From a virus, in the UHGV virus genome UHGV-0130923: DNA of 11,181 nt. One strand, written 5' to 3'. A program made the position numbers and the translations under genes. The notes under the pieces were generated by a model. It ran no database searches. It had not been told where the DNA came from and was given only the letters and a program-made list of their open reading frames with translations. This document shows, in pieces, positions 1-11,181 of the stretch. The first letter of the stretch is position 1. Each line of letters opens with the position of its first letter.

Positions 1-1
1 G

Positions 2-124
2 CTGTACGTTTCGCCGATTGTTTCCGGTGAGGTTATCCGTTCCCGTGGCGGCTCCACCTCTGAATTTACGCCGGGATATGTCAAACCCAAGCACTTAGCA
101 TGGCTTTCTGAGGCTTTCGTGTAG
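2..124 (+). CDS. E: Lambda E-like major capsid protein, N-terminal-side fragment of the helper prophage gene (runs off the window start, interrupted by the island)
   Basis: Frame starting at nt 2 reads LYVSPIVSGEVIRSRGGSTSEFTPGYVKPKH, then nine unrelated residues (LAWLSEAFV) and a TAG at 122-124. The conserved part matches lambda gpE residues ~52-82 as I recall them. The reading frame changes character exactly at the direct repeat. Confidence 0.8.
   Translation: MYVSPIVSGEVIRSRGGSTSEFTPGYVKPKHLAWLSEAFV
84..93. other. attL core: left copy of the 10-bp direct repeat AACCCAAGCA
   Basis: Identical 10-mer at 84-93 and 10843-10852, each sitting on the K-P-K-H codons of the split capsid gene. An integrase gene begins ~160 bp inside the left copy. 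Confidence 0.75.
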
Positions 125-202
125 TTGCTGGTTTTTACACTTAATCTTTTGATAATAAAGAATAAGTTTATCTGGTGCTTTCACTGAATTTTCCTCGTTA
201 TC

Positions 203-241
203 TGTGTGTTGCAATCATCTCTGTATTGCAGCTTGTATTGC
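203..241. promoter_or_regulatory. attL arm-type repeats (putative integrase arm-binding sites) overlapping the int leader
   Basis: TGTGTTGCAA (205-214), TGTATTGCAGC (223-233) and TTGTATTGC (233-241). The same TGTATTGCAGC / ATGTATTGCAAC motifs recur at 10745-10769 just inside the right end. Confidence 0.5.
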
Positions 242-256
242 TTTTTGGGGCTAAAA

Positions 257-1492
257 ATGGCTGGCGAGAACAAACTGAGCGACAAAGCGCTTAAAGGATA
301 TCTGGGGAAACCCAGAGAAAAGCAGATCACCATTGCTGATGGAAAGGGGCTTTCTATTCGTGTGAGTACTAAAGGGGCTGTGAGCTTTGTTTTCTTCTAC
401 AGGTTAGCAGGTGGCCGGGCTGCTCCGGTCTGGCTAACGTTGGGTAAATATCCTGATATGTCACTCAAACAGGCAAGGGAAAAGCGCGACGAGTGCCGTG
501 GTTGGTTGGCTGACAAACGTGATCCGCGTATCCAGATTAAGATTCAGGCTGAAGAACGCTTAAAGCCGGTTACAGTGGAGGATGCACTAAATTACTGGTA
601 TGAAAATTACTGTAAGGTGCGTCGTAAAACTCATGCTGTAACGCTTGGCAGATTTCGAAAGCATATCTTTCCCTATATCGGTCATTTGCCCGTAAATGAC
701 ACTCACCTATATGAATGGCTGGACTGTTTTGACCGAATTAAACGTAATGCACCAGTTATGGCGGCGTATGTTTTTTCTGACACTAAATTAGCTCTTCGTT
801 TTTGTCGGGTACGCCAGTACGCGACGTGTGATGCTTTAAAGGATTTGCGCATGAGTGATGTGGGGCAGATTGCAGGTAAGCGGGATCGGGTTCTGGATGA
901 AGCCGAACTCGGCCAGCTCTGGAAGGCAATTTTTGTCGAGCCTGATTTAAAACTAATGTCTGAATACACGCGAAAAATGTTTGTGCTTTGTACAGTATTT
1001 GGATGTCGAATGAGTGAAGCCCGATTATCAGAATGGAGCGAATGGGATCTCGAAAGTTGGGTTTGGACTGTACCAAAAGATCACTCAAAAACTGGTGTTG
1101 AAATCGTCAGACCAGTACCTGAAATTCTACGACAGTGGGTAACGGATGTTCACGAAGAGACAAAACATACTGGTTATGTGCTGGGAAGTCTGCGAATTAG
1201 AGAAAGCGTAAGCAAGATTGGGGGGAAAATCGGTAAACGTTTGGGCCATGAAAAACAATGGTCACTACACGACCTTAGAAGAACGCTATCTACTCATCTA
1301 AGTGATCTCGGTGTTGAATTTTATGTAGTAGAACAACTGTTAGGCCATGCGCTACCTGGCGTGGCAGGTGTTTACAACCGGAGTAAGTTTATGGCTAAAA
1401 AACTGGATGCTCTGGAACTCTGGACTACATATCTCAATAGCATCGCAGGTGCTGATTCAAAAGTGACAATCCTCAAACAAAAGGTTGGTTAA
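257..1492 (+). CDS. int: Tyrosine site-specific integrase, P4-like family
   Basis: ATG at 257 gives MAGENKLSDKALKGYLGKPREKQITIADGKGLSIRVSTKGAVSFVFFYR, a typical P4-type integrase N-terminus. The C-terminus has HDLRRT, LLGHA and GVYNRS, consistent with the catalytic R/H/R/Y signature. The track start at 206 is a GTG extension through the arm repeats and is not preferred. Confidence 0.85.
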   Translation: MAGENKLSDKALKGYLGKPREKQITIADGKGLSIRVSTKGAVSFVFFYRLAGGRAAPVWLTLGKYPDMSLKQAREKRDECRGWLADKRDPRIQIKIQAEERLKPVTVEDALNYWYENYCKVRRKTHAVTLGRFRKHIFPYIGHLPVNDTHLYEWLDCFDRIKRNAPVMAAYVFSDTKLALRFCRVRQYATCDALKDLRMSDVGQIAGKRDRVLDEAELGQLWKAIFVEPDLKLMSEYTRKMFVLCTVFGCRMSEARLSEWSEWDLESWVWTVPKDHSKTGVEIVRPVPEILRQWVTDVHEETKHTGYVLGSLRIRESVSKIGGKIGKRLGHEKQWSLHDLRRTLSTHLSDLGVEFYVVEQLLGHALPGVAGVYNRSKFMAKKLDALELWTTYLNSIAGADSKVTILKQKVG

Positions 1493-1493
1493 C

Positions 1494-1721
1494 ATGAAAA
1501 AAATGGCAATTGTTGATAAAAAGGGTCTGGAGTACATTCCTAACATTGACCGAATGATCCGTGAGAAAGAATGTCGGGAGCTAACCACTCTTGCGAACAG
1601 CACACGCTGGAAGCTGGAGAAGGAAGGAAAATTTCCTAAGCGGATCAAGATTGGTTCCACTGCTGTTGCATATCGTCTTTCAGAAGTGCAGGCATGGATT
1701 CGAGGTGAGTGGGTAGTTTAA
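1494..1721 (+). CDS. alpA: AlpA-family helix-turn-helix protein (putative excisionase or transcriptional regulator)
   Basis: ATG at 1494 lies 2 nt after the int stop with AAGG ~10 nt upstream. The product contains ELTTLANSTRWKLEKEGKFPKRIKIGSTAVAYRLSEVQAWI, which fits the AlpA/Xis-like HTH pattern. Confidence 0.65.
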   Translation: MKKMAIVDKKGLEYIPNIDRMIREKECRELTTLANSTRWKLEKEGKFPKRIKIGSTAVAYRLSEVQAWIRGEWVV

Positions 1722-1746
1722 ATTATCTCAGAATAAAATATTATGA

Positions 1747-1782
1747 ATTACTGATTTGAGAATTTGTACTCAAATCAGTAAT
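1747..1782. terminator. Bidirectional intrinsic terminator hairpin between convergent genes
   Basis: 14-bp perfect inverted repeat ATTACTGATTTGAG / CTCAAATCAGTAAT (1747-1760 and 1769-1782) with an 8-nt loop and AT-rich flanks. It sits between the end of the plus-strand alpA-like gene and the end of the minus-strand membrane-protein gene. Confidence 0.6.
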
Positions 1783-1821
1783 AACATTCTTTATAAGAGA
1801 TTAAATCCAAATAAAGAGTAA

Positions 1822-2328
1822 TCATATACCGGGGTGCATTGCATCCCACTGAATATGCTGATGTTTTTTTTCTGTTTCTATCCTTTTTTCAATAAGTTGT
1901 TGTATATTTTTACAGTACAATTTGTGTGTGATGTTATTATCGTAAGCCTGATATAGCAACGTCAATGTTGATGCTATGAAACATGCAGAAAGAAAATGAA
2001 CTAGTACATGTGAGCGTTTTTTGGTTGTCCATGATGCATTCGCTTGTGAAATATAAATCATTCTGAGAATGATAATGATGATAGACAGTAACAGACCACT
2101 CAATAAAATAAGTATTGGGTTTGCGTATTTAATTAATGGTTGAGAGCAAAAAACTATTATAGCTCCTGTGACTGCGTATGAGAAAAAGGAGTAATTAAAC
2201 TTCTTACTCCTTCTCTCAAGTATTTTAATTTCATCTTGTGTGGGGGTTTTAGATGCCTCTAATATAAGTTTATTAAATGTTTCTGTTATCTTGTTTTTTG
2301 TGTTTGTGGCTATTTTTTTTAGATTCAT
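1822..2328 (-). CDS. Hypothetical membrane protein, about three predicted transmembrane helices (AT-rich accessory cargo)
   Basis: 168-aa ORF with a AAGGGAG ribosome-binding site upstream of the ATG. Hydrophobic stretches FFSYAVTGAIIVFCSQPL, ILILLSGLLLSIIIIIL and VLVHFLSACFIASTLTLL. The gene and its flanks (about 1722-2640) are visibly more AT-rich than the rest of the island. Confidence 0.55.
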   Translation of the reverse strand: MNLKKIATNTKNKITETFNKLILEASKTPTQDEIKILERRSKKFNYSFFSYAVTGAIIVFCSQPLIKYANPILILLSGLLLSIIIIILRMIYISQANASWTTKKRSHVLVHFLSACFIASTLTLLYQAYDNNITHKLYCKNIQQLIEKRIETEKKHQHIQWDAMHPGI

Positions 2329-2678
2329 AGCATTCTAACTCCCTTAACTTATTTATTACTTTCTCTTTATGATAAGAGAGGGGAATGACTTGGTAAAGTG
2401 ATTTGTCATTAATAATGATAATCCTTGCGATAAATATTTCTGCAAGTTATTTACCTGTTTGTTGCTATCTTGTTAAGCGTTGGGTGTGGTTTATGTTTGG
2501 AGCGACTTTATTTAATCGTGATTTTATGGATTTATATTTATATCCTGTAAGATAAGCGCATGTTAGTTCAGGAGTAGTGTCAGATAAAATTATTCGGAGT
2601 AGAACTACCTTTTCTGTTTATTGCCAGTATTTACATAGCAATGCGCCGTAGTTACTCACATCACGGCGCTGATACTAA

Positions 2679-2981
2679 TTATTCAGATTCTTTGGCTTTA
2701 CGCCGCTGGAGTTCTTCACGAGCGACGGCTACGAGTTGCCCGATTTCCTCCGCTGCCTTGATGCCGATTTGTTCGACCTTAGCTAAGGCATCCAGTGAAG
2801 ACACGAGGGGATTTTCTCCGCTTCCTTCTGCCTGGCGGCGGGCGATCTCACCGCGCATGGCGGTTACTATGAATCCGGCGTTGCTTTCGCCGTCCAGTTT
2901 TACGGATTCCATGCCCTCCATAACATCGTGGGGAACCCTGATCGTTGTCATTTGCGATTTTGCATTTTTGTATACAGACAT
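2679..2981 (-). CDS. YlcI/YnfO-family (DUF3950-like) small protein, candidate island regulator
   Basis: 100-aa ORF. The segment TTIRVPHDVMEGMESVKLDGESNAGFIVTAMRGEIARR parallels the pattern of E. coli prophage YlcI (IRFPNQMIEQINIALDQKGSGNFSAWVIEACRRR) as recalled from memory. It is transcribed divergently from the plus-strand operon. Confidence 0.55.
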   Translation of the reverse strand: MSVYKNAKSQMTTIRVPHDVMEGMESVKLDGESNAGFIVTAMRGEIARRQAEGSGENPLVSSLDALAKVEQIGIKAAEEIGQLVAVAREELQRRKAKESE

Positions 2982-3001
2982 AGTTAATCACCAATTTGTT
3001 A

Positions 3002-3104
3002 TGTGTATATCACTATACACAAAAGTGAGATATAAAAACACTTGCAATGTATATCACCACAATATAATGTATATCTCACATTATGGTCGCTATGTATCTC
3101 ACAA
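3002..3104. promoter_or_regulatory. Divergent promoter/operator region with repeated TGTATATC(A/T)CAC-like sites
   Basis: Inverted repeat TGTGTATA-TCAC-TATACACA at 3002-3021, with related copies at 3026-3035 (inverted), 3048-3059, 3068-3081 and 3092-3104, in the AT-rich gap between the two divergent genes. Confidence 0.5.
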
Positions 3105-3189
3105 TGATCGATTCATAAAAACGACGAAACCCGGCAGTGCGCGAACACTAACCGGGCTTCTAACCAAACCGTTAAACGAGGTAACGATT

Positions 3190-3555
3190 ATGGCTGGAAC
3201 ACAGCATACCCAAACTCACCCTAAATTTATATACACCTTTGTGGCACTACACCACGACCGCATGGCAGATGGAGCAACTACGGTACATGTTGCCGCTGAC
3301 ACGCTGGTTGATGCCCGCAAGATGGTTAAGGAGATGGGCTATACTGCGGCTTTCTGGAAAGGGCGTGAAGAAAACACGCTGTTTATTCAGAAATGCGAAA
3401 ACAATTTCATCTGGCGTTTTATCGCCCTGAGCACCGCACAACCACGCGTAATACACATCGTGGCCACCAGCGAACAGGAAGCCCGCCAGCAATCCCCGGC
3501 TGGTTGCGTGATGGTATTCGCCGCCCGTATTCGTCAGGAGGTATGCCGTGCTTAA
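3190..3555 (+). CDS. Hypothetical protein, first gene of the plus-strand early operon
   Basis: ATG at 3190 preceded by GAGGT at 3179-3183. This is the in-frame internal start of track ORF 2641..3555, whose upstream part overlaps the opposite-strand gene and the operator region. Confidence 0.5.
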   Translation: MAGTQHTQTHPKFIYTFVALHHDRMADGATTVHVAADTLVDARKMVKEMGYTAAFWKGREENTLFIQKCENNFIWRFIALSTAQPRVIHIVATSEQEARQQSPAGCVMVFAARIRQEVCRA

Positions 3556-3733
3556 AACCTTCCGTGTATTTGCCCGAGCGGTTAACCCACGAGGCCACAC
3601 AATTGGTATCACTCAGAACGTGAAGGCTGTTAATGTTCAGACGGCTATTGCTGCGGTGAGAAGCGAATCATCAGAATATGGCTTATCACAAGTTATTATT
3701 TCAGCAGTGTATGAATTAAAAGAGGTGCATTAA
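3548..3733 (+). CDS. Hypothetical small protein
   Basis: GTG start at 3548 with a strong AGGAGG at 3535-3540, overlapping the upstream stop (translational coupling). Confidence 0.45.
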   Translation: MLKTFRVFARAVNPRGHTIGITQNVKAVNVQTAIAAVRSESSEYGLSQVIISAVYELKEVH

Positions 3734-3924
3734 TGCAGGAAATTACATTACACGAAGCCGCTGAACGTGCGCACCAGACAGAGATTATTTGCCGCCTTCT
3801 TGAGGTATACCCGAACAAAATTACAGATGCTGATATATCCGCACTGGCGAGCCTACTGGCGCGTCTCTCTGGAGGGGTGGCTGCGTGGTTGCAGGAAGAG
3901 GAAGAAAAACGCAATGAGCAATAA
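3733..3924 (+). CDS. Hypothetical small protein
   Basis: ATG overlaps the previous stop (TAATG) with AGAGG upstream; 63 aa with an acidic C-terminus. Confidence 0.45.
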   Translation: MQEITLHEAAERAHQTEIICRLLEVYPNKITDADISALASLLARLSGGVAAWLQEEEEKRNEQ

Positions 3925-4156
3925 CAAACGCGTAATTTGCGAATTGAATGAACTCACACAAAGCGCAATATCTTACAACAATGCCGTAAGTGAGATTATT
4001 AACGTCTGGTTTGAATCGCTGACAAATTACGAGCGTGACGAGTCAACGGCAAGATTAACCTTTGCCATTTCTGAATTACTGGATATTTCCACCAGCAAGA
4101 TAAACAGAGCATTAGAAAAAATTCACGAATTAAAACACCACACAAACGGAATTTAA
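3914..4156 (+). CDS. Hypothetical small protein
   Basis: Internal ATG at 3914 (MSNNKRVICELNELTQ...) with a purine-rich GGAAGAGGAAG upstream, overlapping the previous gene by 11 nt. The upstream part of track ORF 3767..4156 is Arg-rich and embedded out of frame in the previous gene, so it is not preferred. Confidence 0.4.
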   Translation: MSNNKRVICELNELTQSAISYNNAVSEIINVWFESLTNYERDESTARLTFAISELLDISTSKINRALEKIHELKHHTNGI

Positions 4157-4160
4157 TTAT

Positions 4161-4340
4161 ATGGGAATGAAAAATACTGGTGTTAATGCCAGCGGCCCCG
4201 CTCGTCCTGAATTTATGAACGGCGATATTTACCGTGATAAATACGGCGGCACGGTAACGATTAAAGGCGTGGCAGAACGGCGTATCACTTACCGCTGTGA
4301 AGGCACGGGCAAACATCCAGAAAATGAAAAACATGCTTAA
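4161..4340 (+). CDS. Hypothetical small protein (59 aa, just below the track cutoff)
   Basis: ORF MGMKNTGVNASGPARPEFMNGDIYRDKYGGTVTIKGVAERRITYRCEGTGKHPENEKHA fills the gap before the primase gene on the same strand. No clear ribosome-binding site. Confidence 0.3.
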   Translation: MGMKNTGVNASGPARPEFMNGDIYRDKYGGTVTIKGVAERRITYRCEGTGKHPENEKHA

Positions 4341-4358
4341 CGGATTCAGGGGGCAAAA

Positions 4359-6110
4359 ATGAAGAGCGCACCGAACCTAAAAAAACAGCCGCGCGACAAG
4401 ATGACAGAAGTTATTATTTTTGCGGGTAGTGATGCGTGGAGCCATGCGAAAGAGTGGCAGGAATGGGCGGGTAAACATATTGCCGCCGACGATGTGCCGC
4501 CTGTCGTGCTGGCTGATGAGCAACTGAAAAATATCACCGATTACCGGATCATTGATGAAGATCGTCAGTGTGTGCGTGTTTACCGCGCAGGACATATCAC
4601 AGAGCACAGCATGACGCAGATTGTTACGTTACTGGCTGTGGCTGGAGTGAAGACCGTACACGAATACGCGGGGATTACTGACACCAGCCCCGTGGATTTA
4701 TCCGACCAGTTGCCGCGACTCAAAGAGGAATGCGAGCGTGGGGAAAGTCTGGTGCTTAATCTTCCGACGAAGCAAAAGGCGCAACTTTCACAGATGGCAG
4801 ACAGTGAACGTGCACAACTACTTGCCGATCGCTTTGATGGTGTGTGTGTTCATGCAGAAAGTGAAATCGTCCACGTATGGCGCGGCGGGGTATGGTGTCC
4901 GGTCAGCACAATGGAGCTGAGCCGCGAAATGGTGGCGATCTATTCAGAGCACAGGGCCACATTCAGCAAGCGTGCAATTAATAACGCCGTGGAGGCGTTA
5001 AAAGTTATTGCCGACCCCATGGGGGAGCCGTCCGGTGATTTGCTACCGTTCGCCAATGGTGTGCTTGACCTGAAAACGGGGGAATTTTCCCCGCACTCGC
5101 CGGAGAACTGGATCACCACGCACAACGGCATTGAGTACACGCCACCAGCACCAGGGGAGAACATCCGCGACAACGCGCCAAACTTTCATAAATGGCTTGA
5201 TCACGCAGCCGGAAAAGACCCACGCAAGATGATGCGTATATGTGCCGCGCTGTACATGATTATGGCGAACCGGTACGACTGGCAGATGTTTATTGAGGCC
5301 ACCGGAGACGGCGGGAGCGGAAAGAGTACATTCACGCACATAGCCAGCCTTCTGGCAGGGAAACAGAACACGGTAAGCGCTGAAATGACTTCGCTTGATG
5401 ATGCTGGTGGGCGTGCTCAGGTTGTCGGGAGTCGTCTTATCGTCCTGGCTGACCAGCCGAAATATACAGGCGAAGGCACGGGCATCAAGAAAATCACGGG
5501 CGGCGACCCCGTGGAAATAAACCCGAAATATGAAAAGCGTTTTACGGCGGTAATCAGGGCGGTGGTGCTGGCTACCAACAATAACCCGATGATATTCACC
5601 GAACGGGCCGGAGGTGTGTCACGTCGTCGCGTAATTTTCCGCTTCGACAATATCGTTAGCGAGGCAGAAAAGGACAAGGATTTACCGGAGAAGGTCGCGG
5701 CTGAAATCCCCGTGATTATCCGCAGATTGCTGGCAAACTTTGCTGATCCAGAAAAGGCGCGACATTTGTTGATTGAACAGCGCGACGGTGAAGAAGCACT
5801 GGCGATAAAGCAACAGACGGATCCGGTTATTGAGTTTTGCCAGTTTCTGAATTTTCTGGAGGAAGCGCGCGGCCTGATGATGGGTGGCGGTGGCGATTCC
5901 GTGAAGTACACGACCAGAAACAGCCTTTACCGCGTCTATCTGGCGTTTATGGCATACGCAGGCAGAAGCAAGCCGCTAAACGTGGCTGATTTCAGCAAGG
6001 CCATGAAGCCAGCGGCGAAAGTTTACGGATGTGAATATATAACGCGCAGGGTTAAAGGACTTACGCAAACCAATGTGACAACAACAGAGGATTGCGACGC
6101 GTTTTTATAA
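4359..6110 (+). CDS. Primase-helicase family replication protein (P4 alpha C-terminal / D5-like NTPase)
   Basis: 583 aa with a Walker A P-loop GDGGSGKST and a downstream hydrophobic strand ending in acidic residues (RLIVLADQP), Walker B-like. AGGGGG ribosome-binding site before the ATG at 4359. An iteron array lies immediately downstream. Confidence 0.75.
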   Translation: MKSAPNLKKQPRDKMTEVIIFAGSDAWSHAKEWQEWAGKHIAADDVPPVVLADEQLKNITDYRIIDEDRQCVRVYRAGHITEHSMTQIVTLLAVAGVKTVHEYAGITDTSPVDLSDQLPRLKEECERGESLVLNLPTKQKAQLSQMADSERAQLLADRFDGVCVHAESEIVHVWRGGVWCPVSTMELSREMVAIYSEHRATFSKRAINNAVEALKVIADPMGEPSGDLLPFANGVLDLKTGEFSPHSPENWITTHNGIEYTPPAPGENIRDNAPNFHKWLDHAAGKDPRKMMRICAALYMIMANRYDWQMFIEATGDGGSGKSTFTHIASLLAGKQNTVSAEMTSLDDAGGRAQVVGSRLIVLADQPKYTGEGTGIKKITGGDPVEINPKYEKRFTAVIRAVVLATNNNPMIFTERAGGVSRRRVIFRFDNIVSEAEKDKDLPEKVAAEIPVIIRRLLANFADPEKARHLLIEQRDGEEALAIKQQTDPVIEFCQFLNFLEEARGLMMGGGGDSVKYTTRNSLYRVYLAFMAYAGRSKPLNVADFSKAMKPAAKVYGCEYITRRVKGLTQTNVTTTEDCDAFL

Positions 6111-6120
6111 TTTTAGACAA

Positions 6121-6353
6121 AAGCCCTCTACCTCCTCTACCTAAAGAAAATAAATATATATTATTCAATATGATAAGCAGGTAGAGGGCTAGGTAGAAGG
6201 CAAATAAAAGCCCTCTACCTCCTCCACCATGATTAAGGTCATTTGTGAGGGGCGGGTAGAGGATGGGTAGAGGGCCCCGAAAGCCCTCTACCCATCTGAA
6301 AGCCGCGCCATTACTGACCTGAAAGATGATTAGGTAGAGAGGTAGAGGAGGTG
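6121..6353. repeat. Iteron array, putative island origin of replication
   Basis: About 11 copies of CCTCTACC / GGTAGAGG in alternating orientation (for example 6124-6141, 6180-6200, 6210-6227, 6254-6274, 6284-6293, 6333-6351), with an AT-rich stretch at 6142-6180, directly after the primase-helicase gene. Confidence 0.65.
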
Positions 6354-6396
6354 CACCACATTTCAAAACTTTTTAAACGAGGGGGTAAAAATAAAA

Positions 6397-6654
6397 ATGC
6401 ACACATCAGGAAAACTGAACAAACATATAAAGCCACATTACCGCGCCCTTGATATGGCTGAACACTGGCTAAGGGTGGCGATTAAGGCAATAGATCGCAA
6501 CGCCGGGGAAGGATACGCGAAAGCACATCCCGAACTGATAAGCGCATTCATGACAACGGCGGCTGCAAACTTTGCCACGCTGACCGAACGGGAGATTGCC
6601 GAAGCGGAGGAAGTGACAACCATCAATATTAAGTCCGGAGAGCAGGCAGCATGA
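6397..6654 (+). CDS. Hypothetical protein
   Basis: 85-aa ORF with GAGGGGG upstream; its stop overlaps the start of the SSB-like gene (ATGA). Confidence 0.45.
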   Translation: MHTSGKLNKHIKPHYRALDMAEHWLRVAIKAIDRNAGEGYAKAHPELISAFMTTAAANFATLTEREIAEAEEVTTINIKSGEQAA

Positions 6655-7073
6655 CGGCGCAAATATCAGTTTACGGGAGGTTGGTGGACGACCCGCAGAC
6701 AAAACAGACCAGCAAGGGCATCCCCATGACGCTGGCGCGTATGGCGGTATCACTGCCCTGCAGTCAGTCGGATGACGGTCAGGCGACGATGTGGTTATCT
6801 GTCCTGGCGTTTGGCAGACAAGCCGACACGCTGGCAAAGCATCACAAAGGCGAACTCCTGAGCGTGGCGGGTAACATGCAGGTGAGCCAGTGGACTGGAC
6901 AGAACGGTGAAACGCGGCAGGGCTGGCAGGTTATCGCAGACAGTGTAATCAGTGCCAGAACGGCGCGACCGGGCGGCAAAAAAGGTCAACAGGGCCAGGC
7001 TACTGACGCACTGAACAGGGCAAAACAACAGTCGGGGAATGATGATCCGTACGGCGATAATATACCGTTTTAA
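6651..7073 (+). CDS. ssb: Single-stranded DNA-binding protein-like (OB fold with an acidic C-terminal tail)
   Basis: 140 aa. The N-terminus ISVYGRLVDDPQ and the spaced W/G/F pattern resemble SSB OB folds, followed by a Gly/Gln-rich linker. The C-terminal DDPYGDNIPF resembles the E. coli SSB tail DFDDDIPF. Confidence 0.6.
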   Translation: MTAQISVYGRLVDDPQTKQTSKGIPMTLARMAVSLPCSQSDDGQATMWLSVLAFGRQADTLAKHHKGELLSVAGNMQVSQWTGQNGETRQGWQVIADSVISARTARPGGKKGQQGQATDALNRAKQQSGNDDPYGDNIPF

Positions 7074-7090
7074 ATTCTGAAAATAAAAAA

Positions 7091-7119
7091 ATGCCGGAAG
7101 AAAATAGATTTTCCGGCAT
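7091..7119. terminator. Hairpin at the boundary between the replication and capsid modules
   Basis: ATGCCGGAA / TTCCGGCAT 9-bp stem with an 11-nt loop. The A-run before it means the U-tract is on the minus strand, so as an intrinsic terminator it would act on leftward transcription; for the plus strand it is only a hairpin. Confidence 0.35.
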
Positions 7120-7290
7120 GCTACATAAATCCCGACCAAAGGAAGTAAATACATTAACACGAATTATCAGCACTGAAGTTGTCACGGCAGATTTTATACA
7201 ACATTGCACTTGGTTGCATGTATTCGCATAGCAAATATCGGTGATAGCATATATCCACAATCATTTTTAATGAATGCAAAGAGGATGCGT

Positions 7291-8331
7291 ATGGTTGATT
7301 TATATTCGCCTGCCCAGCTTGTGCAGGTGGCTAATGCTGAAGATGTGCAAAAAAAATTAAATGCGTTGTTTACCAGTTTGTTTTTCACTCGCTCGGTAAT
7401 GTTTGAATCGAGAGACATTATTCTTGATACGATCGACGATCCAAATATCCCGATCGCGGCGTTTTGCTCTCCTATGGTGGGCAGTAAGGTTTCACGAGAT
7501 GAGGGATACGAATCAAAGACAATTCGTCCAGGCTATATGAAGCCGAAAAGCAGCATTGATCCAAATAAGTTAGCTGTGCGCCCTGCGGGTGTATCACCTG
7601 AGCAATACAATGCTTTTGGAGCGCGTAATATTAAAGTTAAACAGGCGATTGTAAATCAGGCTAAAGCTATTCGTGCACGTATTGAATGGCTTGCCGTTCA
7701 GGCAATCACAACGGGGAAAAATATCATTGAGGGCGATGGTATTGAACGTTATGAGCTGGACTGGAATATTAAACCACAAAATATCATCACTCAGTCTGGC
7801 GGTGCTGAGTGGTCAGGTAAGGATAAAGAAACTTTTGATCCAAATGATGATATTGAGAGCTACGCAGAATTTAGTGAGGGCGTCACTAATATCATCATTA
7901 TGGGCGGTAATGTATGGAAGAAATACCGTTCATTCAGAGCGATAAAAGAGGCTCTGGATACCCGTCGTGGTTCTAATGCCGAACTGGAAACGGCCCTTAA
8001 AGACCTTGGTGATTCGGTGAGTTTTAAAGGGTATATGGGCGATGTTGCGATTGTTGTATACAGCGGGCGTTATACCGACGAGGACGGAACTGAAAAACAT
8101 TTCCTTGATCCTGATTTGATGGTGCTTGGCAATACGGCTCTTCAGGGGATTGTCGCCTATGGCGGTATTCAGGATCCGGAGCTAATCCGAATGGGGCTGA
8201 CTAAAGCCGAACTTGCACCGAAAAACTATATTGTGCCTGGTGATCCGGCTATTGAATATGTGCAGACACATTCAGCACCACAGCCAATACCGGCCCGCAT
8301 CAATCGTTTTGTTACCGTTCGCATTGGCTAA
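7291..8331 (+). CDS. Island-encoded divergent homolog of the lambda major capsid protein gpE
   Basis: ATG at 7291 with AAAGAGGA upstream. The product aligns with lambda gpE along its length: ITQSGGAEWSGKDKETFDPNDDIESYA vs ITQSGGTEWSKRDKSTYDPTDDIEAYA, TRRGSNAELETALKDLG vs TRRGSNSELETAVKDLG, GDVAIVVYSG and MVLGNT shared. It is far more divergent than the flanking helper fragments. Confidence 0.85.
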   Translation: MVDLYSPAQLVQVANAEDVQKKLNALFTSLFFTRSVMFESRDIILDTIDDPNIPIAAFCSPMVGSKVSRDEGYESKTIRPGYMKPKSSIDPNKLAVRPAGVSPEQYNAFGARNIKVKQAIVNQAKAIRARIEWLAVQAITTGKNIIEGDGIERYELDWNIKPQNIITQSGGAEWSGKDKETFDPNDDIESYAEFSEGVTNIIIMGGNVWKKYRSFRAIKEALDTRRGSNAELETALKDLGDSVSFKGYMGDVAIVVYSGRYTDEDGTEKHFLDPDLMVLGNTALQGIVAYGGIQDPELIRMGLTKAELAPKNYIVPGDPAIEYVQTHSAPQPIPARINRFVTVRIG

Positions 8332-8340
8332 GGGGGAGCA

Positions 8341-8682
8341 ATGGCTACTCATTACACTGAACTCATGGCTGGCACTGAAGCACTGGTGACTACGCTGGGG
8401 ATATTTTCAGCTAATAAAGGGGTAATTCCTGCATTTACGCCACTGATGCAGGAAGATGCAACAGGTGCACTGGTGGTATGGGATGGTTCGAGCGTAGGTA
8501 AAGCGGTTTATGTTTCCGCTGTACAAATCGACACCGCGAAAAAAACACAGGCTCAGGTCTATAAGACAGGTGTCTTAAATGTTGATGCTCTGAACTGGCC
8601 TGAGTCTGTAAAAGAACTGTCAGTAAAGATTGCAGCGTTTGTTGGCTCAGGTATTTCTGTTCAGCCGCTGGCTCGTGTGTAA
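8341..8682 (+). CDS. Island-encoded homolog of the lambda head decoration protein gpD
   Basis: 113 aa with an AAGGGGGAG ribosome-binding site. TPLMQEDATGALVVWDGSS...YKTGVLNVDALNWPE...AAFVGSGISV parallels lambda gpD TPLMLDTSSRKLVAWDGTT...YKSGTFRYEDVLWPE...TAFAGTAISIV. Confidence 0.8.
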   Translation: MATHYTELMAGTEALVTTLGIFSANKGVIPAFTPLMQEDATGALVVWDGSSVGKAVYVSAVQIDTAKKTQAQVYKTGVLNVDALNWPESVKELSVKIAAFVGSGISVQPLARV

Positions 8683-8693
8683 AGGGGGATACA

Positions 8694-9077
8694 ATGCAGA
8701 ATCTTTACAATGACCTTAAGCCAATTGCCGAAATGATGTATCCGGATCCAGCAGTAGAGGAATTAAAGGCTATTGCTGACAAAATGCGTTTAAGCGAGCG
8801 TCTTGTTGATATGAATCAGGTGATGGAACTTACAACCCTGAGTCGTCGTACACTGCTAAACCTTGAAGCACGTGGAGAGTTCCCCGAACGCGTGCAGGTT
8901 ACGGAAGGGCGTAAGGCCTGGTATTTAAGCGAAGTGATCGACTGGATAAACAATATTCCGCGCGCTTCTGAATATTGCCGCGTACCTGTCCCAAAAAAGC
9001 CAGATGCGGCGCTATGCCTCAAGATTGAGCGTGTACGCCGCAATGCGCGGGATGGTCGCTATAAGCTGATTGGTTGA
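8694..9077 (+). CDS. Second AlpA-family HTH protein, directly upstream of cos
   Basis: 127 aa with an AAAGGGGGA ribosome-binding site. Contains MELTTLSRRTLLNLEARGEFPERVQVTEGRKAWYLSEVIDWIN, an AlpA-like motif. Co-oriented and tightly spaced with the E and D homologs. Confidence 0.6.
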   Translation: MQNLYNDLKPIAEMMYPDPAVEELKAIADKMRLSERLVDMNQVMELTTLSRRTLLNLEARGEFPERVQVTEGRKAWYLSEVIDWINNIPRASEYCRVPVPKKPDAALCLKIERVRRNARDGRYKLIG

Positions 9078-9103
9078 TGAAATTAGGGCCCGTTCTGGCT
9101 GGC

Positions 9104-9167
9104 GGGTCCTTTCCGGCGATCCGACAGGTTACGGGGCGGCGACCTCGCGGGTTTTCGCTATTTATGA
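9104..9167. other. Lambda-type cos site (cosQ-side sequence, cosN GGGCGGCGACCT at 9134-9145, first cosB element)
   Basis: GGGTCCTTTCCGGCGATCCGACAGGTTACG-GGGCGGCGACCT-CGCGGGTTTTCGCTATTTATGA matches the lambda genome ends as I recall them (right end ...CCGACAGGTTACG, left end GGGCGGCGACCTCGCGGGTTTTCGCTATTTATGA...). Sequence after 9167 no longer matches lambda cosB. A Nu1-like gene follows ~150 bp downstream, as in lambda. Confidence 0.8.
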
Positions 9168-9293
9168 GCATTTTTAGGGGACTGGTGGTGGTTTTGTTGT
9201 TCGCTATATCTGTATGAATAATAAGAGAAAAACACAATCAACACACCAACCTGAAACAGTAATTAAGTTGTGGTATCAATGAAATTGCACCTG

Positions 9294-9821
9294 ATGAACA
9301 AAAAAAACATGGCAAAAAGTTGCCGTGTAAGCGCCACTGCGTTCGATAAGTGGGGAGTGATTCCCGTCGAGCGTAAGGGCCGCGAGGCGTTTTATGATGT
9401 CGCCAGTGTAATAGATAATCGGGTTAACAATGCAATCAGCCAGATTACAAACGAAACGGGCGAGATTGATGATGATGAACTCCTACGAGTCAGGATCAGA
9501 TTGCTGACAGCACAGGCAGAGGCGCAGGAGCTTAAAAACGAGCGCGAACGCGGCGACGTTATTGATACAGCGTTTTGTATATACGTGCTTTCAAAACTGG
9601 CGAGTCAGATTTCTTCAATCATGGACAGCCTGCCGCTTGCCATGACAAGGAAGTTTCCCGACATGAAGCCGTCTATGCTGGATGGACTGAAAAAAGAAGT
9701 TATCAGAGCCTGTAACGCATGCGCAAAACTTGACGAAAACATACCGCTGATGCTGTCCGATTATCTGATGGAAACTGCCGGAAACGTACCGGATAAGTTG
9801 CAGCTGAATAAAGATAAGTAA
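9294..9821 (+). CDS. Nu1-like terminase small subunit
   Basis: LTAQAEAQELKNERERGDVIDTAFCIYVLSKLASQISSIMDSLPLAMTRKFP...LDENIPLMLSDYLMETAG parallels lambda Nu1 LTRAQADAQELKNARDSAEVVETAFCTFVLSRIAGEIASILDGLPLSVQRRFP...LDELIPGLLSEYIEQSG. Start chosen at ATG 9294 (MNKKNM...) by analogy with Nu1 MEVNKKQ; ATG 9279 and GTG 9270 are alternatives. Confidence 0.75.
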   Translation: MNKKNMAKSCRVSATAFDKWGVIPVERKGREAFYDVASVIDNRVNNAISQITNETGEIDDDELLRVRIRLLTAQAEAQELKNERERGDVIDTAFCIYVLSKLASQISSIMDSLPLAMTRKFPDMKPSMLDGLKKEVIRACNACAKLDENIPLMLSDYLMETAGNVPDKLQLNKDK

Positions 9822-9832
9822 CGTAGTACGCT

Positions 9833-10114
9833 ATGACTGAATCCGAAATACTGCGATTAATCCGCCGTGCTTGTGGAATCAGCAAGCAGCATGACGAACA
9901 GGCCACGCAGCCGGACAGCGTGATCGCCGAAAATTACGCGCGTGTTGTTGCTGATGTGATGCGCCGTGATGGTATTGAGCTTAACGGCGTGGATATGCGC
10001 GACATACGGATCAGATTCCTTGAGTTGCTGGCATACCGTCGCCGTTCTCAACAACGAAGGGAGAGCGCGAAAAACACTTATCAGTGGAAGAAGCCGGAAC
10101 GGTTGCGGCGGTAG
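9833..10114 (+). CDS. Hypothetical Arg-rich small protein, possibly a vestigial terminase large subunit (gpA) N-terminal fragment
   Basis: 93-aa ORF immediately after the Nu1-like gene, where gpA begins in lambda. Weak resemblance of SEILRLIRRACGIS...AENYA to gpA N-terminus SQVNRLRHFVRAGLRS...ADANYY; the remainder is Arg-rich. Weak ribosome-binding site. Confidence 0.3.
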   Translation: MTESEILRLIRRACGISKQHDEQATQPDSVIAENYARVVADVMRRDGIELNGVDMRDIRIRFLELLAYRRRSQQRRESAKNTYQWKKPERLRR

Positions 10115-10744
10115 ATTCCTGATATTCAGGAAAACCACGAATCCGGGGGTTTTACTGGCGCGGTGTACACGGTGGAACGTATAGCGTTACCTGACTTATT
10201 GCATTGTAAAAAGTTGAAAGGCACGGCCTGTAAGATGGGATGTTGTGAGTAGTTTAAAGCTACCCGCAAATTCTTTCGTTGTGCTGGCACAGGCGGTTAA
10301 ACCGTCGGTAACTGGATAATCCCCACTGGGGGAAAAGCTGGCTACATCCCTCACATCTGAGGACTGATAACGCAAAATTGCGTTGGCTGGCAGAGTGCAA
10401 ATTTGCACGATGGCCTAACCCATTGATTCTTTCGAAAACCCCCATTGGGGGAGAACGGGGGAATAAACCTGACTCATTGATTTTTCCACAATCCTTAATT
10501 TGAGGAAGCTGGATAGTTGCACTACCCAAAAAGTGCAGTACCCACATAGCTGCTTAATAGCGTTTATTTTTTCCGCACACCTCAAATCTGAGAAGGCCGG
10601 AATGATGACATGGCAGGATTATGATTCCTTGATTTCAAGGAGTCCTCCAGTGTGAAAATGAAATTATCTGGGCTGGTGGGTGAGTTGCTGATCTGCAACT
10701 CGGCTATGAAACTTAATAATCGAACAGCATGTAAATTCATTTCT

Positions 10745-10769
10745 GTGTATTGCAGCATGTATTGCAACA
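10745..10769. promoter_or_regulatory. attR arm-type repeats (putative integrase arm-binding sites)
   Basis: TGTGTATTGCAGC (10745-10757) and ATGTATTGCAAC (10758-10769), the same motif family as at 205-241 in the left end. Confidence 0.5.
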
Positions 10770-10842
10770 TAGTCATTCTGGTAGAGATTATGCTCTATTT
10801 TTCCTCTTATATCATTCACATACTTACGTCATTGACTCATGT

Positions 10843-10852
10843 AACCCAAGCA
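10843..10852. other. attR core: right copy of the 10-bp direct repeat AACCCAAGCA
   Basis: Identical to 84-93; the capsid reading frame resumes immediately (P-K-H-E-V-N-P-Q). Confidence 0.75.
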
Positions 10853-11181
10853 TGAGGTGAATCCGCAGATGACCCTGCGTCGCCTGCCGGATGAAGATCC
10901 GCAGAATCTGGCGGACCCGGCTTACCGCCGCCGTCGCATCATCATGCAGAACATGCGTGACGAAGAGCTGGCCATTGCTCAGGTCGAAGAGATGCAGGCA
11001 GTTTCTGCCGTGCTTAAGGGCAAATACACCATGACCGGTGAAGCCTTTGATCCGGTTGAGGTGGATATGGGGCGCAGTGCGGCGAACAACATCACACAGT
11101 CCGGTGGCACGGAGTGGAGCAAGCGCGACAAGTCCACGTATGACCCGACCGACGATATCGAAGCCTACGCGCTGAACGCCA
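10845..11181 (+). CDS. E: Lambda E-like major capsid protein, distal fragment of the helper prophage gene (runs off the window end)
   Basis: Frame from 10845 reads PKHEVNPQMTLRRLPDEDPQNLADPAYRRRRIIMQNMRDEELAIAQVEEMQAVSAVLKGKYTMTGEAFDPVEVDMGRSAANNITQSGGTEWSKRDKSTYDPTDDIEAYALNA, which continues lambda gpE from residue ~80 as I recall it. An in-frame TAA at 10842-10844 immediately precedes it. Confidence 0.8.

Follow-up and report, generated by a model that had tools for sequence, protein, structure and literature searches.

A PICI-type capsid and decoration gene pair in an island embedded in a lambda-like prophage gene E

Described satellites and the island in the window

Enterobacterial PICIs usually carry a lambda-type pair of capsid and decoration genes (Fillol-Salom et al. 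2018, PMC6092414). The SatelliteFinder model of PICIs is composed of five core components, including a capsid gene (PMC10085698), which removes the novelty that the initial annotation of the locus described here had implied for its capsid pair. One integrase clade places PICIs inside the late genes of prophages, most often gene E (Tommasini, Mageeney & Williams 2023, PMC10111431). The helper-embedded PICI (HE-PICI) Eco567.11capE from E. coli NRG857c was shown to excise and replicate, and virions were not detected from its helper (PMC10111431). Induction by a helper phage and high-frequency transfer with it were shown for EcCICFT073 (PMC6092414). The cf-PICIs, such as EcCIEDL933, have their own HK97-fold capsid and small terminase and need helper tails (Alqurainy et al., 10.1101/2022.09.08.507074). 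Satellite homologs of the helper major capsid protein are also present in SaPIbov5 (Ccm) and Pasteurella PmCI172, where they are linked to small capsids.

The window, the whole stretch of DNA analysed here, comprises 11,181 nucleotides of the virus genome UHGV-0130923. It contains an island that splits a lambda-like gene E at codon ~80-82, and has the following features:

1..93, + strand: helper prophage lambda-type E, 5' fragment, codons ~52-82 (...GYVKPKH); 91/93 nucleotides identical to lambda E, translation equal to gpE
84..93: attL identity block AACCCAAGCA, read directly; the sole stretch common to both junctions
222..241, + strand: doubled motif TGTATTGCA(GC)TTGTATTGC beside attL, probably an arm-type site for the integrase, from motif counting
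257..1492, + strand: tyrosine integrase (Pfam Arm-DNA-bind_3 and Phage_integrase)
1494..1721, + strand: AlpA-family regulator/excisionase adjoining the integrase (Pfam Phage_AlpA, 3e-15)
4359..6110, + strand: primase/replicase (Pfam D5_N, DUF5906, Pox_D5)
6651..7073, + strand: single-strand DNA-binding protein (Pfam SSB, 3e-16)
7291..8331, + strand: major capsid protein of the island (346 aa), of the PICI type within the lambda gpE family, from profile match, alignments, AF2 model and dN/dS
8341..8682, + strand: head-decoration protein of the island (113 aa), of the PICI type within the gpD/SHP family, from profile match, alignments and dN/dS
8694..9077, + strand: second AlpA-like helix-turn-helix protein, 127 aa (Pfam Phage_AlpA, 1e-8; PHROG 2790, 2e-48; PDB 8C3T)
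9102..9174, + strand: island cos core, with the exact lambda cosN GGGCGGCGACCT at 9134-9145, from alignment to helper and lambda cos
9279..9821, + strand: Nu1-type small terminase, 180 aa (Pfam Phage_Nu1, 1e-24)
9833..10114, + strand: conserved 93-aa protein (PHROG 1561; 73% identity to the final gene of EcCICFT073)
10746..10769, + strand: doubled motif TGTATTGCAGCA/TGTATTGCAACA near attR, read as a motif
10843..10852: attR identity block AACCCAAGCA, from junction comparison
10853..11181, + strand: helper E, 3' continuation from codon 83 onward, from alignment to lambda E

The island unit measures 10,759 bp and occupies positions 84-10852 of the window, between the 10-bp repeats. The flanks at 1-93 and 10853-11181 join in frame into 422 nucleotides of lambda E, of which 411 (97.4%) are identical, with two amino-acid differences; the helper copy is near-identical to lambda, as had been claimed. 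Excision of the island would restore the helper reading frame exactly. The + strand carries both E fragments and every main gene of the island, which is thus co-oriented with the late gene that it interrupts. In close relatives, a complete lambda-like head and tail module surrounds the island. The window contains three copies of TGTATTGCA, all adjoining the att sites, with 0.18 expected by chance. A doubled motif unique to HE-PICIs is mentioned in PMC10111431. No sigma-70-like + strand promoter and no convincing terminator were found at 6900-10900, which would fit transcription in one long operon. The Rfam scan returned nothing above the gathering score, and one symR-like match below it.

Judged by its gene content, the island is a Gram-negative PICI, and the capsid and decoration genes are those of its 'late zone'. 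All five SatelliteFinder components are present, namely an integrase at one end, an AlpA-type regulator, a primase-replicase, a capsid homolog, and a small terminase. The scanned ORFs contain no tail, holin, portal, or head-tail connector gene, and the length of 10,759 bp falls within about 10-20 kb. In agreement with the initial annotation, neither Pfam nor PHROG identified a portal, protease, or scaffold gene among the annotated-size ORFs, and the same scans detected no large terminase, connector, or tail gene. Outside the scanned set are two small ORFs, an Icd-like one, named from the RefSeq annotation of a homologous locus, and one at ~3925-4156. Several other small ORFs are also present in the island.

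The comparison of sequences places the island in the published HE-PICI family typified by Eco567.11capE, and its class is therefore already known. It lies inside a prophage late gene E at codon ~80, at the site named E:Phage_cap_E_80, with a short att block and in the orientation of the helper gene; its assignment to the HE-PICI integrase clade follows from 98.1% nucleotide identity to 11capE over the integrase-bearing left 3.3 kb (window 1-3306). The two elements agree in their site in lambda-type E, their 10-bp block, their orientation within the late operon of the helper, and the AlpA-like gene after D. Their E proteins are 99% and their D proteins 100% identical. However, window positions 3306-6444, which contain small genes and the primase, are not alignable to 11capE by megablast. 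The right ends also differ. That of the window island consists of cos, the Nu1-type small terminase, and the 93-aa gene, whereas 11capE, described as lacking terS (PMC10111431), carries there a gene for 64 aa together with a DUF262/HEPN pair on the reverse strand.

The island cos core matches the helper cos of locus L001 at 71 of 73 positions, with cosN the same in both, and the lambda left end at 39 of 41. Unrelated sequence occupies the position of cosB downstream of it. The small terminase is 38% identical to lambda Nu1 over its full length, with the C-terminal half aligned as well. A location of cos in the non-coding right end (9800-10860) was considered and rejected, as this region gave no BLAST match to the helper or lambda cos, and cos was instead located at 9102-9174, upstream of the small terminase.

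EcCICFT073 (PMC6092414) carries a homologous pair, c1499 and c1500, likewise placed behind the replication genes with E first and D second. Both elements share the series E, D, one gene, Rpp or small terminase, and 93-aa gene. EcCICFT073, however, is integrated at a chromosomal site adjoining phoQ, and has the 144-aa Rpp, which bears no similarity to the window small terminase, in its place. A 68-aa ORF over the start of E and a 137-aa gene after D are present in EcCICFT073 and absent from the window island. The cf-PICIs differ further, since they have genes for portal, protease, head-tail adaptor/connector, and large terminase, and form complete small heads, whereas the window island lacks these genes.

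Capsid and decoration proteins of the island

The initial annotation had described full-length, diverged homologs of lambda gpE and gpD in reversed order, and the alignments bear this out. Island E aligns with lambda gpE from end to end, with 146 of 348 positions identical (42%, E=5e-87). It matches Pfam Phage_cap_E (PF03864) with E=4e-41 and 141.6 bits, against a curated cut-off of 22.9, and the PHROG 'major head protein' with 1e-88. The identity of island E is 55% to c1499 of EcCICFT073 and 99% (341/346 aa) to E of 11capE. An AF2 model, computed from an alignment that omitted the lambda gpE row, has a pTM of 0.81. Its TM scores are 0.90 to the c1499 crystal structure (PDB 3BQW) and 0.84-0.86 to lambda gpE, so that the structural check proposed earlier gave a gpE-like fold for E. 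3BQW is the top match of island E in both sequence and fold.

In an alignment of 57 PICI-type and lambda-type sequences, with island E as the first row, island E has the invariant residue at all 37 invariant columns. Divergence from lambda is greatest in the N-terminal 165 and the C-terminal 60 residues. The residues ~166-255 are as conserved between island E and lambda-type E as they are within PICIs. The equivalent of lambda W308 is a tyrosine in nine of nine window-type sequences. An origin of the center of island E (residues 166-285) by recombination from lambda-type E was considered and rejected, because the three clades are near-equal there (0.52-0.58) and a slight excess of similarity is limited to residues 211-255. 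The center is thus treated as a conserved core common to the family, rather than as a recombination tract.

Island D matches Pfam HDPD (PF02924) with 4e-15 and 56.3 bits, against a cut-off of 29.1, and the PHROG 'head decoration' with 1e-25. It is 38% identical to lambda gpD over 78 aa (E=6e-17) and 54% identical to c1500, and has sequence matches to solved structures of SHP and gpD. The D genes of three loci that share the RefSeq accession of 11capE D have no nucleotide differences from the island gene. The protein has a clade-specific N-terminus and a C-terminal SVQPL extension.

The two genes are separated by 9 nucleotides, and a ribosome-binding site, GGGGGAG, precedes D. Both ORFs are intact, with no frameshift and no internal stop, and together with the profile matches this speaks against decayed remnants or a lack of homology. 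The products belong to the protein families of lambda gpE and gpD and the phage 21 SHP and share their folds, by model for E and by sequence match to solved structures for D. They differ from the lambda proteins in their 42% and ~38% identities, in clade-specific termini of E and D, in the absence of portal and protease genes ahead of them, and in gene order, as lambda has D (5747-6079) before E (6135-7160). Both are probably working structural proteins, where E would be a lambda-type HK97-fold shell subunit and D the trimeric cement, which in the case of lambda binds only to expanded, DNA-filled heads.

A satellite lineage of the pair

The order E then D is preserved in PICIs at 15 of 15 loci examined from the group with at least 50% identity, the window included. 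The order D then E was found in all five phage or prophage head modules examined. No capsid protein more than 42% identical to island E was found among 50,697 phages. The homologs of island E form an identity ladder from 99 to 50%, followed by a gap down to 43% or less, and PICI-type E proteins form a single split in the neighbor-joining tree, apart from one chimeric sequence. These comparisons show that the pair is a lineage of its own, specific to satellites, in which the order E then D is fixed whatever the integration site of the PICI. Since the identity to any phage E is at most 42%, the lineage is old.

Conservation of the pair and of its fixed order extends over at least four named genera, Escherichia, Salmonella, Edwardsiella, and Serratia; Cedecea and Scandinavium are named as sources of further homologs. 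E has a dN/dS ratio of 0.03-0.13 and D one of 0.12, in comparisons with dS of up to 1.35. Both genes are under strong purifying selection. The clade-specific regions of E and D match each other, and these conservation patterns suggest that the two proteins are co-adapted.

Some sister PICIs have a gpC-like S49 protease gene added after D. The window-type module lacks this protease, as well as the small ORF that overlaps the start of E in c1499-type PICIs. The PICI proteins of 137 aa (EcCICFT073) and 143 aa encoded after D gave no Pfam match and no significant BLASTP match that would identify them as Nu3-like scaffolds; the one sign was a 14-residue motif (E=0.016), and a scaffold identity is at most a tentative lead. 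The chimeric sequence, a lambda::island E, occurs in one metagenome scaffold (L018). Its junction has no full-length match in 5,426 complete E. coli genomes, and this singleton is a rare recombinant or else an artefact of assembly.

Possible role of the pair

All DNA packaged by EcCICFT073 was phage-sized, and the removal of c1499 or c1500 left its transfer and its interference with lambda unchanged (PMC6092414). The phage-sized DNA would fit full-size heads. Our literature search on the function of c1499 and c1500 found nothing later than the 2018 paper. The pair is kept under strong purifying selection across genera, yet its knock-out in EcCICFT073 has no laboratory phenotype.

We hypothesize, with a probability of about 0.55, that the pair provides a co-adapted shell and cement for lambda-size heads built on the helper portal and scaffold, and is redundant with helper E and D in the laboratory. 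Because the island lacks portal, protease, and scaffold genes, any shell of island E would have to use the helper portal, protease/scaffold, large terminase, and tails. In the late phase of the helper, the co-directional island genes would be transcribed. Island E, by itself or in mixture with helper gpE, would then assemble on the helper portal and protease/scaffold into lambda-size heads. These would be filled from the island cos by the island Nu1-like small terminase and the helper large terminase; island D would then cement them, and helper tails would be attached. Four island units amount to 43.0 kb, or 89% of the lambda genome. E is most diverged from lambda in its N-terminal and C-terminal parts, and D differs at both termini. 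Island D therefore probably binds only to lattices with island E in them, and this would account for the constant company of the two genes. That a decoration protein is obligatory speaks for a function in heads that are filled and expanded. The proposed role relies on redundancy with helper E and D under laboratory conditions, because the deletion of c1499 or c1500 had no effect.

The initial annotation had connected the island pair to the disruption of helper E. The presence of an own capsid gene next to a split helper E in the window, at the commonest HE-PICI target (PMC10111431), would suit the carriage of E, and of D, specifically to compensate for the interrupted gene. However, the same module (98.9% nucleotide identity) is present in PICIs at roxA/phoQ, related copies are located at tRNA-Pro and fis sites, and the pair also occurs in PICIs that are embedded in a portal or terminase gene and have helpers with intact copies of D and E. 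The pair was found in 397 of 5,426 complete E. coli genomes and the capE junction in 173, so that at least 224 of the 397 pair-bearing genomes lack this junction. Since the module resides at ordinary chromosomal sites and with helpers that have intact D and E, its distribution indicates that the pair is not a replacement evolved for a broken helper E. Moreover, helper D is undisrupted, yet the island always carries D; helper E is restored upon excision; and the lineage is old. Compensation is therefore very unlikely, and largely refuted as the reason for the existence of the pair, although it could be a side benefit. A pair newly captured from a helper, and decaying or functionless, would accord with the proposal that PICI late genes were captured from helpers (PMC10111431) and with the absence of a phenotype in the EcCICFT073 knock-outs. 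This reading is already refuted by the dN/dS values, by ORFs that are intact at every locus examined and of fixed order in at least four genera, and by the lack of a phage source closer than 42%.

We consider it unlikely that satellite-specific shells, maybe of smaller T number and with one or two island genomes, are built from island E and D with no other helper parts than portal, protease/scaffold, large terminase, and tails; the smaller capsid suggested by the initial annotation is at odds with the phage-sized DNA of EcCICFT073 and its neutral deletions. That island E, like Ccm, forces T=3 or T=4 shells for one or two island genomes and excludes the helper genome is quite improbable. There are precedents in SaPIbov5 Ccm and PmCI172, as quoted in PMC6092414, for capsid homologs that go with small heads, and the island brings along both a cos site and a small terminase of its own. 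Volume scaling from lambda by T^1.5 gives capacities of ~13.6 kb for T=3 and ~20.9 kb for T=4, of which one unit (10.76 kb) would fill 79% and two units 103%, respectively, but four units also fit a lambda-size head, and the size arithmetic hence does not discriminate. Pfam and PHROG recognized no size-determining scaffold in the island. EcCICFT073 with lambda produced phage-sized DNA only, and its authors ruled out size redirection (PMC6092414), although island E is only 55% identical to c1499 and the result need not transfer. It is likewise doubtful that island E or D, or both, act outside productive particles as poison subunits on the heads of the helper or other lambdoid phages. PICIs commonly interfere with capsid assembly, and mixed capsomers are conceivable given the conservation of E residues ~166-255. 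The interference by EcCICFT073 was not relieved by the deletion of c1499 or c1500, but Rpp suffices by itself to block lambda and could hide a contribution of c1499. Poisoning would leave unexplained both the S49 protease of the sister modules and the obligatory pairing with D, whose lambda counterpart acts solely on heads that are expanded and filled.

The initial annotation had independently met two published facts, the capsid pair of PICIs from 2018 and the embedding in prophage late genes from 2023, and the link that it drew between them fails. The additions made here are modest: a satellite-specific lineage, its fixed reversed order, the matching clade-specific regions of E and D, the protease-extended relatives, and an obligatory decoration protein. 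They justify targeted experiments but leave the overall picture as it was. If satellite-specific shells were formed after all, an abundant PICI class would be a 'partial capsid-former', between classical PICIs and cf-PICIs, and the sister elements with the S49 protease would be further steps along the same path. The homology of helper and satellite E might also permit the exchange of capsid segments.

The island within the helper capsid gene

In the window, a lambda-type major capsid gene (E) is interrupted by a 10,759-bp phage-inducible chromosomal island (PICI). Spliced together, the helper E flanks at 1-93 and 10853-11181 form one continuous reading frame of 422 nt of lambda E (codons ~52-192), 411 of which are identical to lambda, with two amino-acid differences; the initial annotation had rightly called the split gene near-identical to that of lambda. 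The sole sequence common to both junctions is AACCCAAGCA, a 10-bp block found at 84-93 and at 10843-10852, and loss of the island would therefore give back ...GYVKPKHEVNPQ... exactly. A doubled motif, TGTATTGCA, adjoins both att sites: at 222-241 it lies ~130 bp in from attL, and at 10746-10769 ~80-95 bp in from attR. Its exact copies, three versus 0.18 expected, are probably arm-type integrase sites, and the doubling fits the 'doubled DNA motif' of helper-embedded PICIs (HE-PICIs; Tommasini, Mageeney and Williams 2023, PMC10111431). The main island genes all lie on the + strand, and all five PICI core components of the SatelliteFinder model are present.

Features of the island, in window coordinates
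257-1492, +, integrase
1494-1721, +, AlpA
1750-2600, low-GC stretch (32% GC) holding a reverse-strand ORF
1822-2328, -, ORF of 168 aa, hydrophobic by appearance
reverse strand, YlcI/YnfO-like gene (YlcI name from RefSeq annotation of homologous loci)
Icd-like gene (name from the same source)
several small genes
4359-6110, +, D5-type primase
6651-7073, +, SSB
7291-8331, +, E-like gene (346 aa)
8341-8682, +, D-like gene (113 aa)
8694-9077, +, second AlpA-like protein
9102-9174, cos core, with lambda cosN at 9134-9145
9279-9821, +, Nu1-type small terminase
9833-10114, +, conserved 93-aa gene

The 168-aa reverse-strand ORF probably represents accessory cargo that separates the integration zone from the regulatory zone. 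At 3123-3195 on the - strand, immediately upstream of the Icd-like gene, there is a sub-threshold Rfam match to the SymR antitoxin RNA (35 bits, E=0.001; gathering score 61), which could be a chance match or a small regulatory RNA as reported for PICI regulatory zones. The ~730 bp at the right end of the island (10115-10842) hold no convincing ORF or family match; relatives carry variable cargo at this position, a DUF262/HEPN pair in E. coli NRG857c and a TIR-domain gene in IAI39.

The 73-bp cos core surrounds an exact lambda cosN, GGGCGGCGACCT, and matches the helper cos at 97% identity. Unrelated sequence follows at the expected position of cosB, and after the core comes a full-length homologue of Nu1, 38% identical to the lambda protein in an alignment that runs through the C-terminal half. 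We propose that this island-specific small terminase may recruit the large terminase of the helper to the island cos; a small terminase as an alternative to Rpp has already been noted in some PICIs (Fillol-Salom et al. 2018, PMC6092414). The module of cos, small terminase and 93-aa gene occurs in 265 of 5,426 E. coli genomes.

Capsid and decoration proteins

The E-like protein matches Pfam Phage_cap_E (4e-41), and its full-length alignment with lambda gpE shows 42% identity (E=5e-87). The D-like protein matches HDPD (4e-15); over a stretch of 78 residues it shares 38% identity with gpD, and it is nearer to SHP of phage 21. The genes run E then D, the reverse of the lambda order, and the island ORFs scanned include no recognisable gene for a portal, protease, scaffold, large terminase, connector or tail. 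The initial description of full-length, diverged gpE and gpD homologues, unaccompanied by a recognisable portal, protease or scaffold gene, is thus borne out, with significant homology to both families in profile searches. The genes are not decayed remnants: in a comparison of five loci, E has a dN/dS of 0.03-0.13 and D one of 0.12, at dS values up to 1.35.

The AlphaFold model of E (pLDDT 80, pTM 0.81) has as its top structural match the crystal structure 3BQW (TM 0.90), titled 'putative capsid protein of prophage (E. coli CFT073)', followed by structures of lambda gpE (TM 0.84-0.86). Island and lambda-type E diverge mostly in residues 1-165 and 286-346 (30-40% identity), and the centre, residues 166-285, is conserved family-wide. 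PICI-type D proteins have a common N-terminus of their own and are extended at the C-terminus by SVQPL. In E, residue 313 (nt ~8227-8229) is equivalent to W308 of lambda gpE; it is tyrosine in 9/9 window-type sequences, tryptophan or tyrosine in the c1499-type, and tryptophan in all 22 of the 22 lambda-type sequences. In the crystal structure 7SJ5, W308 has been changed to alanine. Two database proteins, P0005 (463 aa) and P0068 (470 aa), contain Phage_cap_E and HDPD domains in a single chain and look like E-D fusions; as the source of each is one short Logan contig, they may be read-through or assembly errors.

Lineage and distribution of the E-D module

No phage capsid protein among 50,697 phage genomes is more than 42% identical to island E. 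In a search of 5.8 billion proteins, homologues range from 99% down to 50% identity and then drop to at most 43%. All 15 upper-group loci examined, the window counted, are PICIs with E then D, and the D-then-E order, downstream of portal and protease, holds in each of the five phage or prophage head modules examined. A neighbour-joining tree separates PICI-type and lambda-type E cleanly but for one chimeric sequence. Late genes in general have been explained by capture from helpers (PMC10111431). The pattern of this lineage points instead to a single old acquisition retained in satellites; repeated recent capture from helpers would not fit it.

A 4.4-kb metagenome scaffold (L018, 2801-3829) carries an intact chimeric capsid gene of lambda-type residues 1-~222 and island-type residues ~223-346, the latter with three mismatches to the window in the last 354 nt. 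Helper portal, protease and D lie upstream, island D and an AlpA-like gene downstream, and the crossover falls inside the 17-nt identical run CTGGATACCCGTCGTGG. A search of 5,426 complete E. coli genomes did not find the chimera, which is therefore either an artefact of assembly or a rare recombinant between helper and satellite. In two sister PICIs, a gpC-like S49 protease (413-430 aa) and a 143-aa gene lie directly 3' of D (L015 9418-11083; L016 6252-7968); this extended head module is intermediate between the island content and capsid-forming PICIs.

The E-D module occurs at various sites. A 98.9% identical version (nt) lies in a PICI between roxA and phoQ, and an 84% version at tRNA-Pro. 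E. coli has the c1499-type at the roxA/phoQ site and Salmonella at a different place in the chromosome, and versions of Serratia and other enterobacteria lie at fis. An Edwardsiella PICI with E-D sits inside a prophage portal gene, with helper D and E intact (L009 1-625, 10908-11681), and another inside a large-terminase gene, with helper C, D and E kept (L016 9140-9982). The pair occurs in 397 of 5,426 complete E. coli genomes and the capE left junction in 173. Carriage of E-D and targeting of E are therefore two independent properties, which coincide here. This distribution contradicts replacement of the disrupted helper protein, inferred in the initial annotation, as a rationale for island E. 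The composite is decaying in some genomes, yet island E and D are intact (L001 11550-13151; L004 936-2452 and 5984-7804): in GN06489 the helper portal has an internal stop, and in IAI39 the prophage has lost its left part, an IS3 element splits the integrase and a stop codon falls within the primase.

Published relatives and function of the pair

Both the element and its capsid/decoration gene pair are already described in the literature. The type HE-PICI, Eco567.11capE (11capE) of E. coli NRG857c, carries a 10-bp identity block at its att sites; a further 201 instances share its E site, which is named Phage_cap_E_80 (PMC10111431). The left 3.3 kb of the window is 98.1% identical to 11capE (nt), E is identical at 341/346 residues, and the D gene has zero nucleotide differences from those of three loci with the same protein accession as 11capE D. 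At the right end, 11capE has a DUF262/HEPN pair where the island has cos, small terminase and the 93-aa gene; because the right ends differ, the statement that 11capE lacks terS (PMC10111431) agrees with its presence here.

In EcCICFT073, the model PICI of CFT073, c1499 is the capsid and c1500 the head decoration gene (PMC6092414). Island E is 55% identical to c1499, D 54% to c1500 and the terminal 93-aa protein 73% to its counterpart, with gene order unchanged. One difference is RppA in place of the small terminase, and comparison of the two found no similarity. The c1499-type PICIs also have a conserved 68-79-aa ORF ending at or overlapping the E start codon (L013 463-669; equivalents in L006, L008, L009 and L014-L016), which tblastn did not find upstream of window E, in 7074-7290.

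The experimental record on the pair is that of EcCICFT073 only; we found no later functional work on c1499/c1500 in the literature. Deletion of c1499 or c1500 neither relieved lambda interference nor altered transfer by resident prophages, and packaged DNA was all phage-sized, from which the authors ruled out size redirection (PMC6092414). The initial annotation had suggested a smaller capsid matched to the island genome. By our own T^1.5 scaling, T=3 and T=4 shells would hold ~13.6 and ~20.9 kb, fitting one or two island units, and small capsids are conceivable, if improbable, for this version, which is only 55% identical to c1499; the sole relevant data, those of EcCICFT073, nevertheless argue against them.

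Strong purifying selection, the retained fold, family-invariant residues and the obligatory partner D argue for E and D as genuine structural proteins. In lambda, heads must have expanded and filled with DNA before gpD acts on them, and island D is conserved and co-varying, which argues that lattices with island E would undergo packaging. This favours a productive shell role over that of a pure poison. We hypothesize that island E and D build lambda-size heads, or take part in them, on the portal and protease/scaffold of the helper, redundancy being the simplest reading in keeping with the null knock-outs. Four island units amount to 43.0 kb, 89% of the lambda genome.
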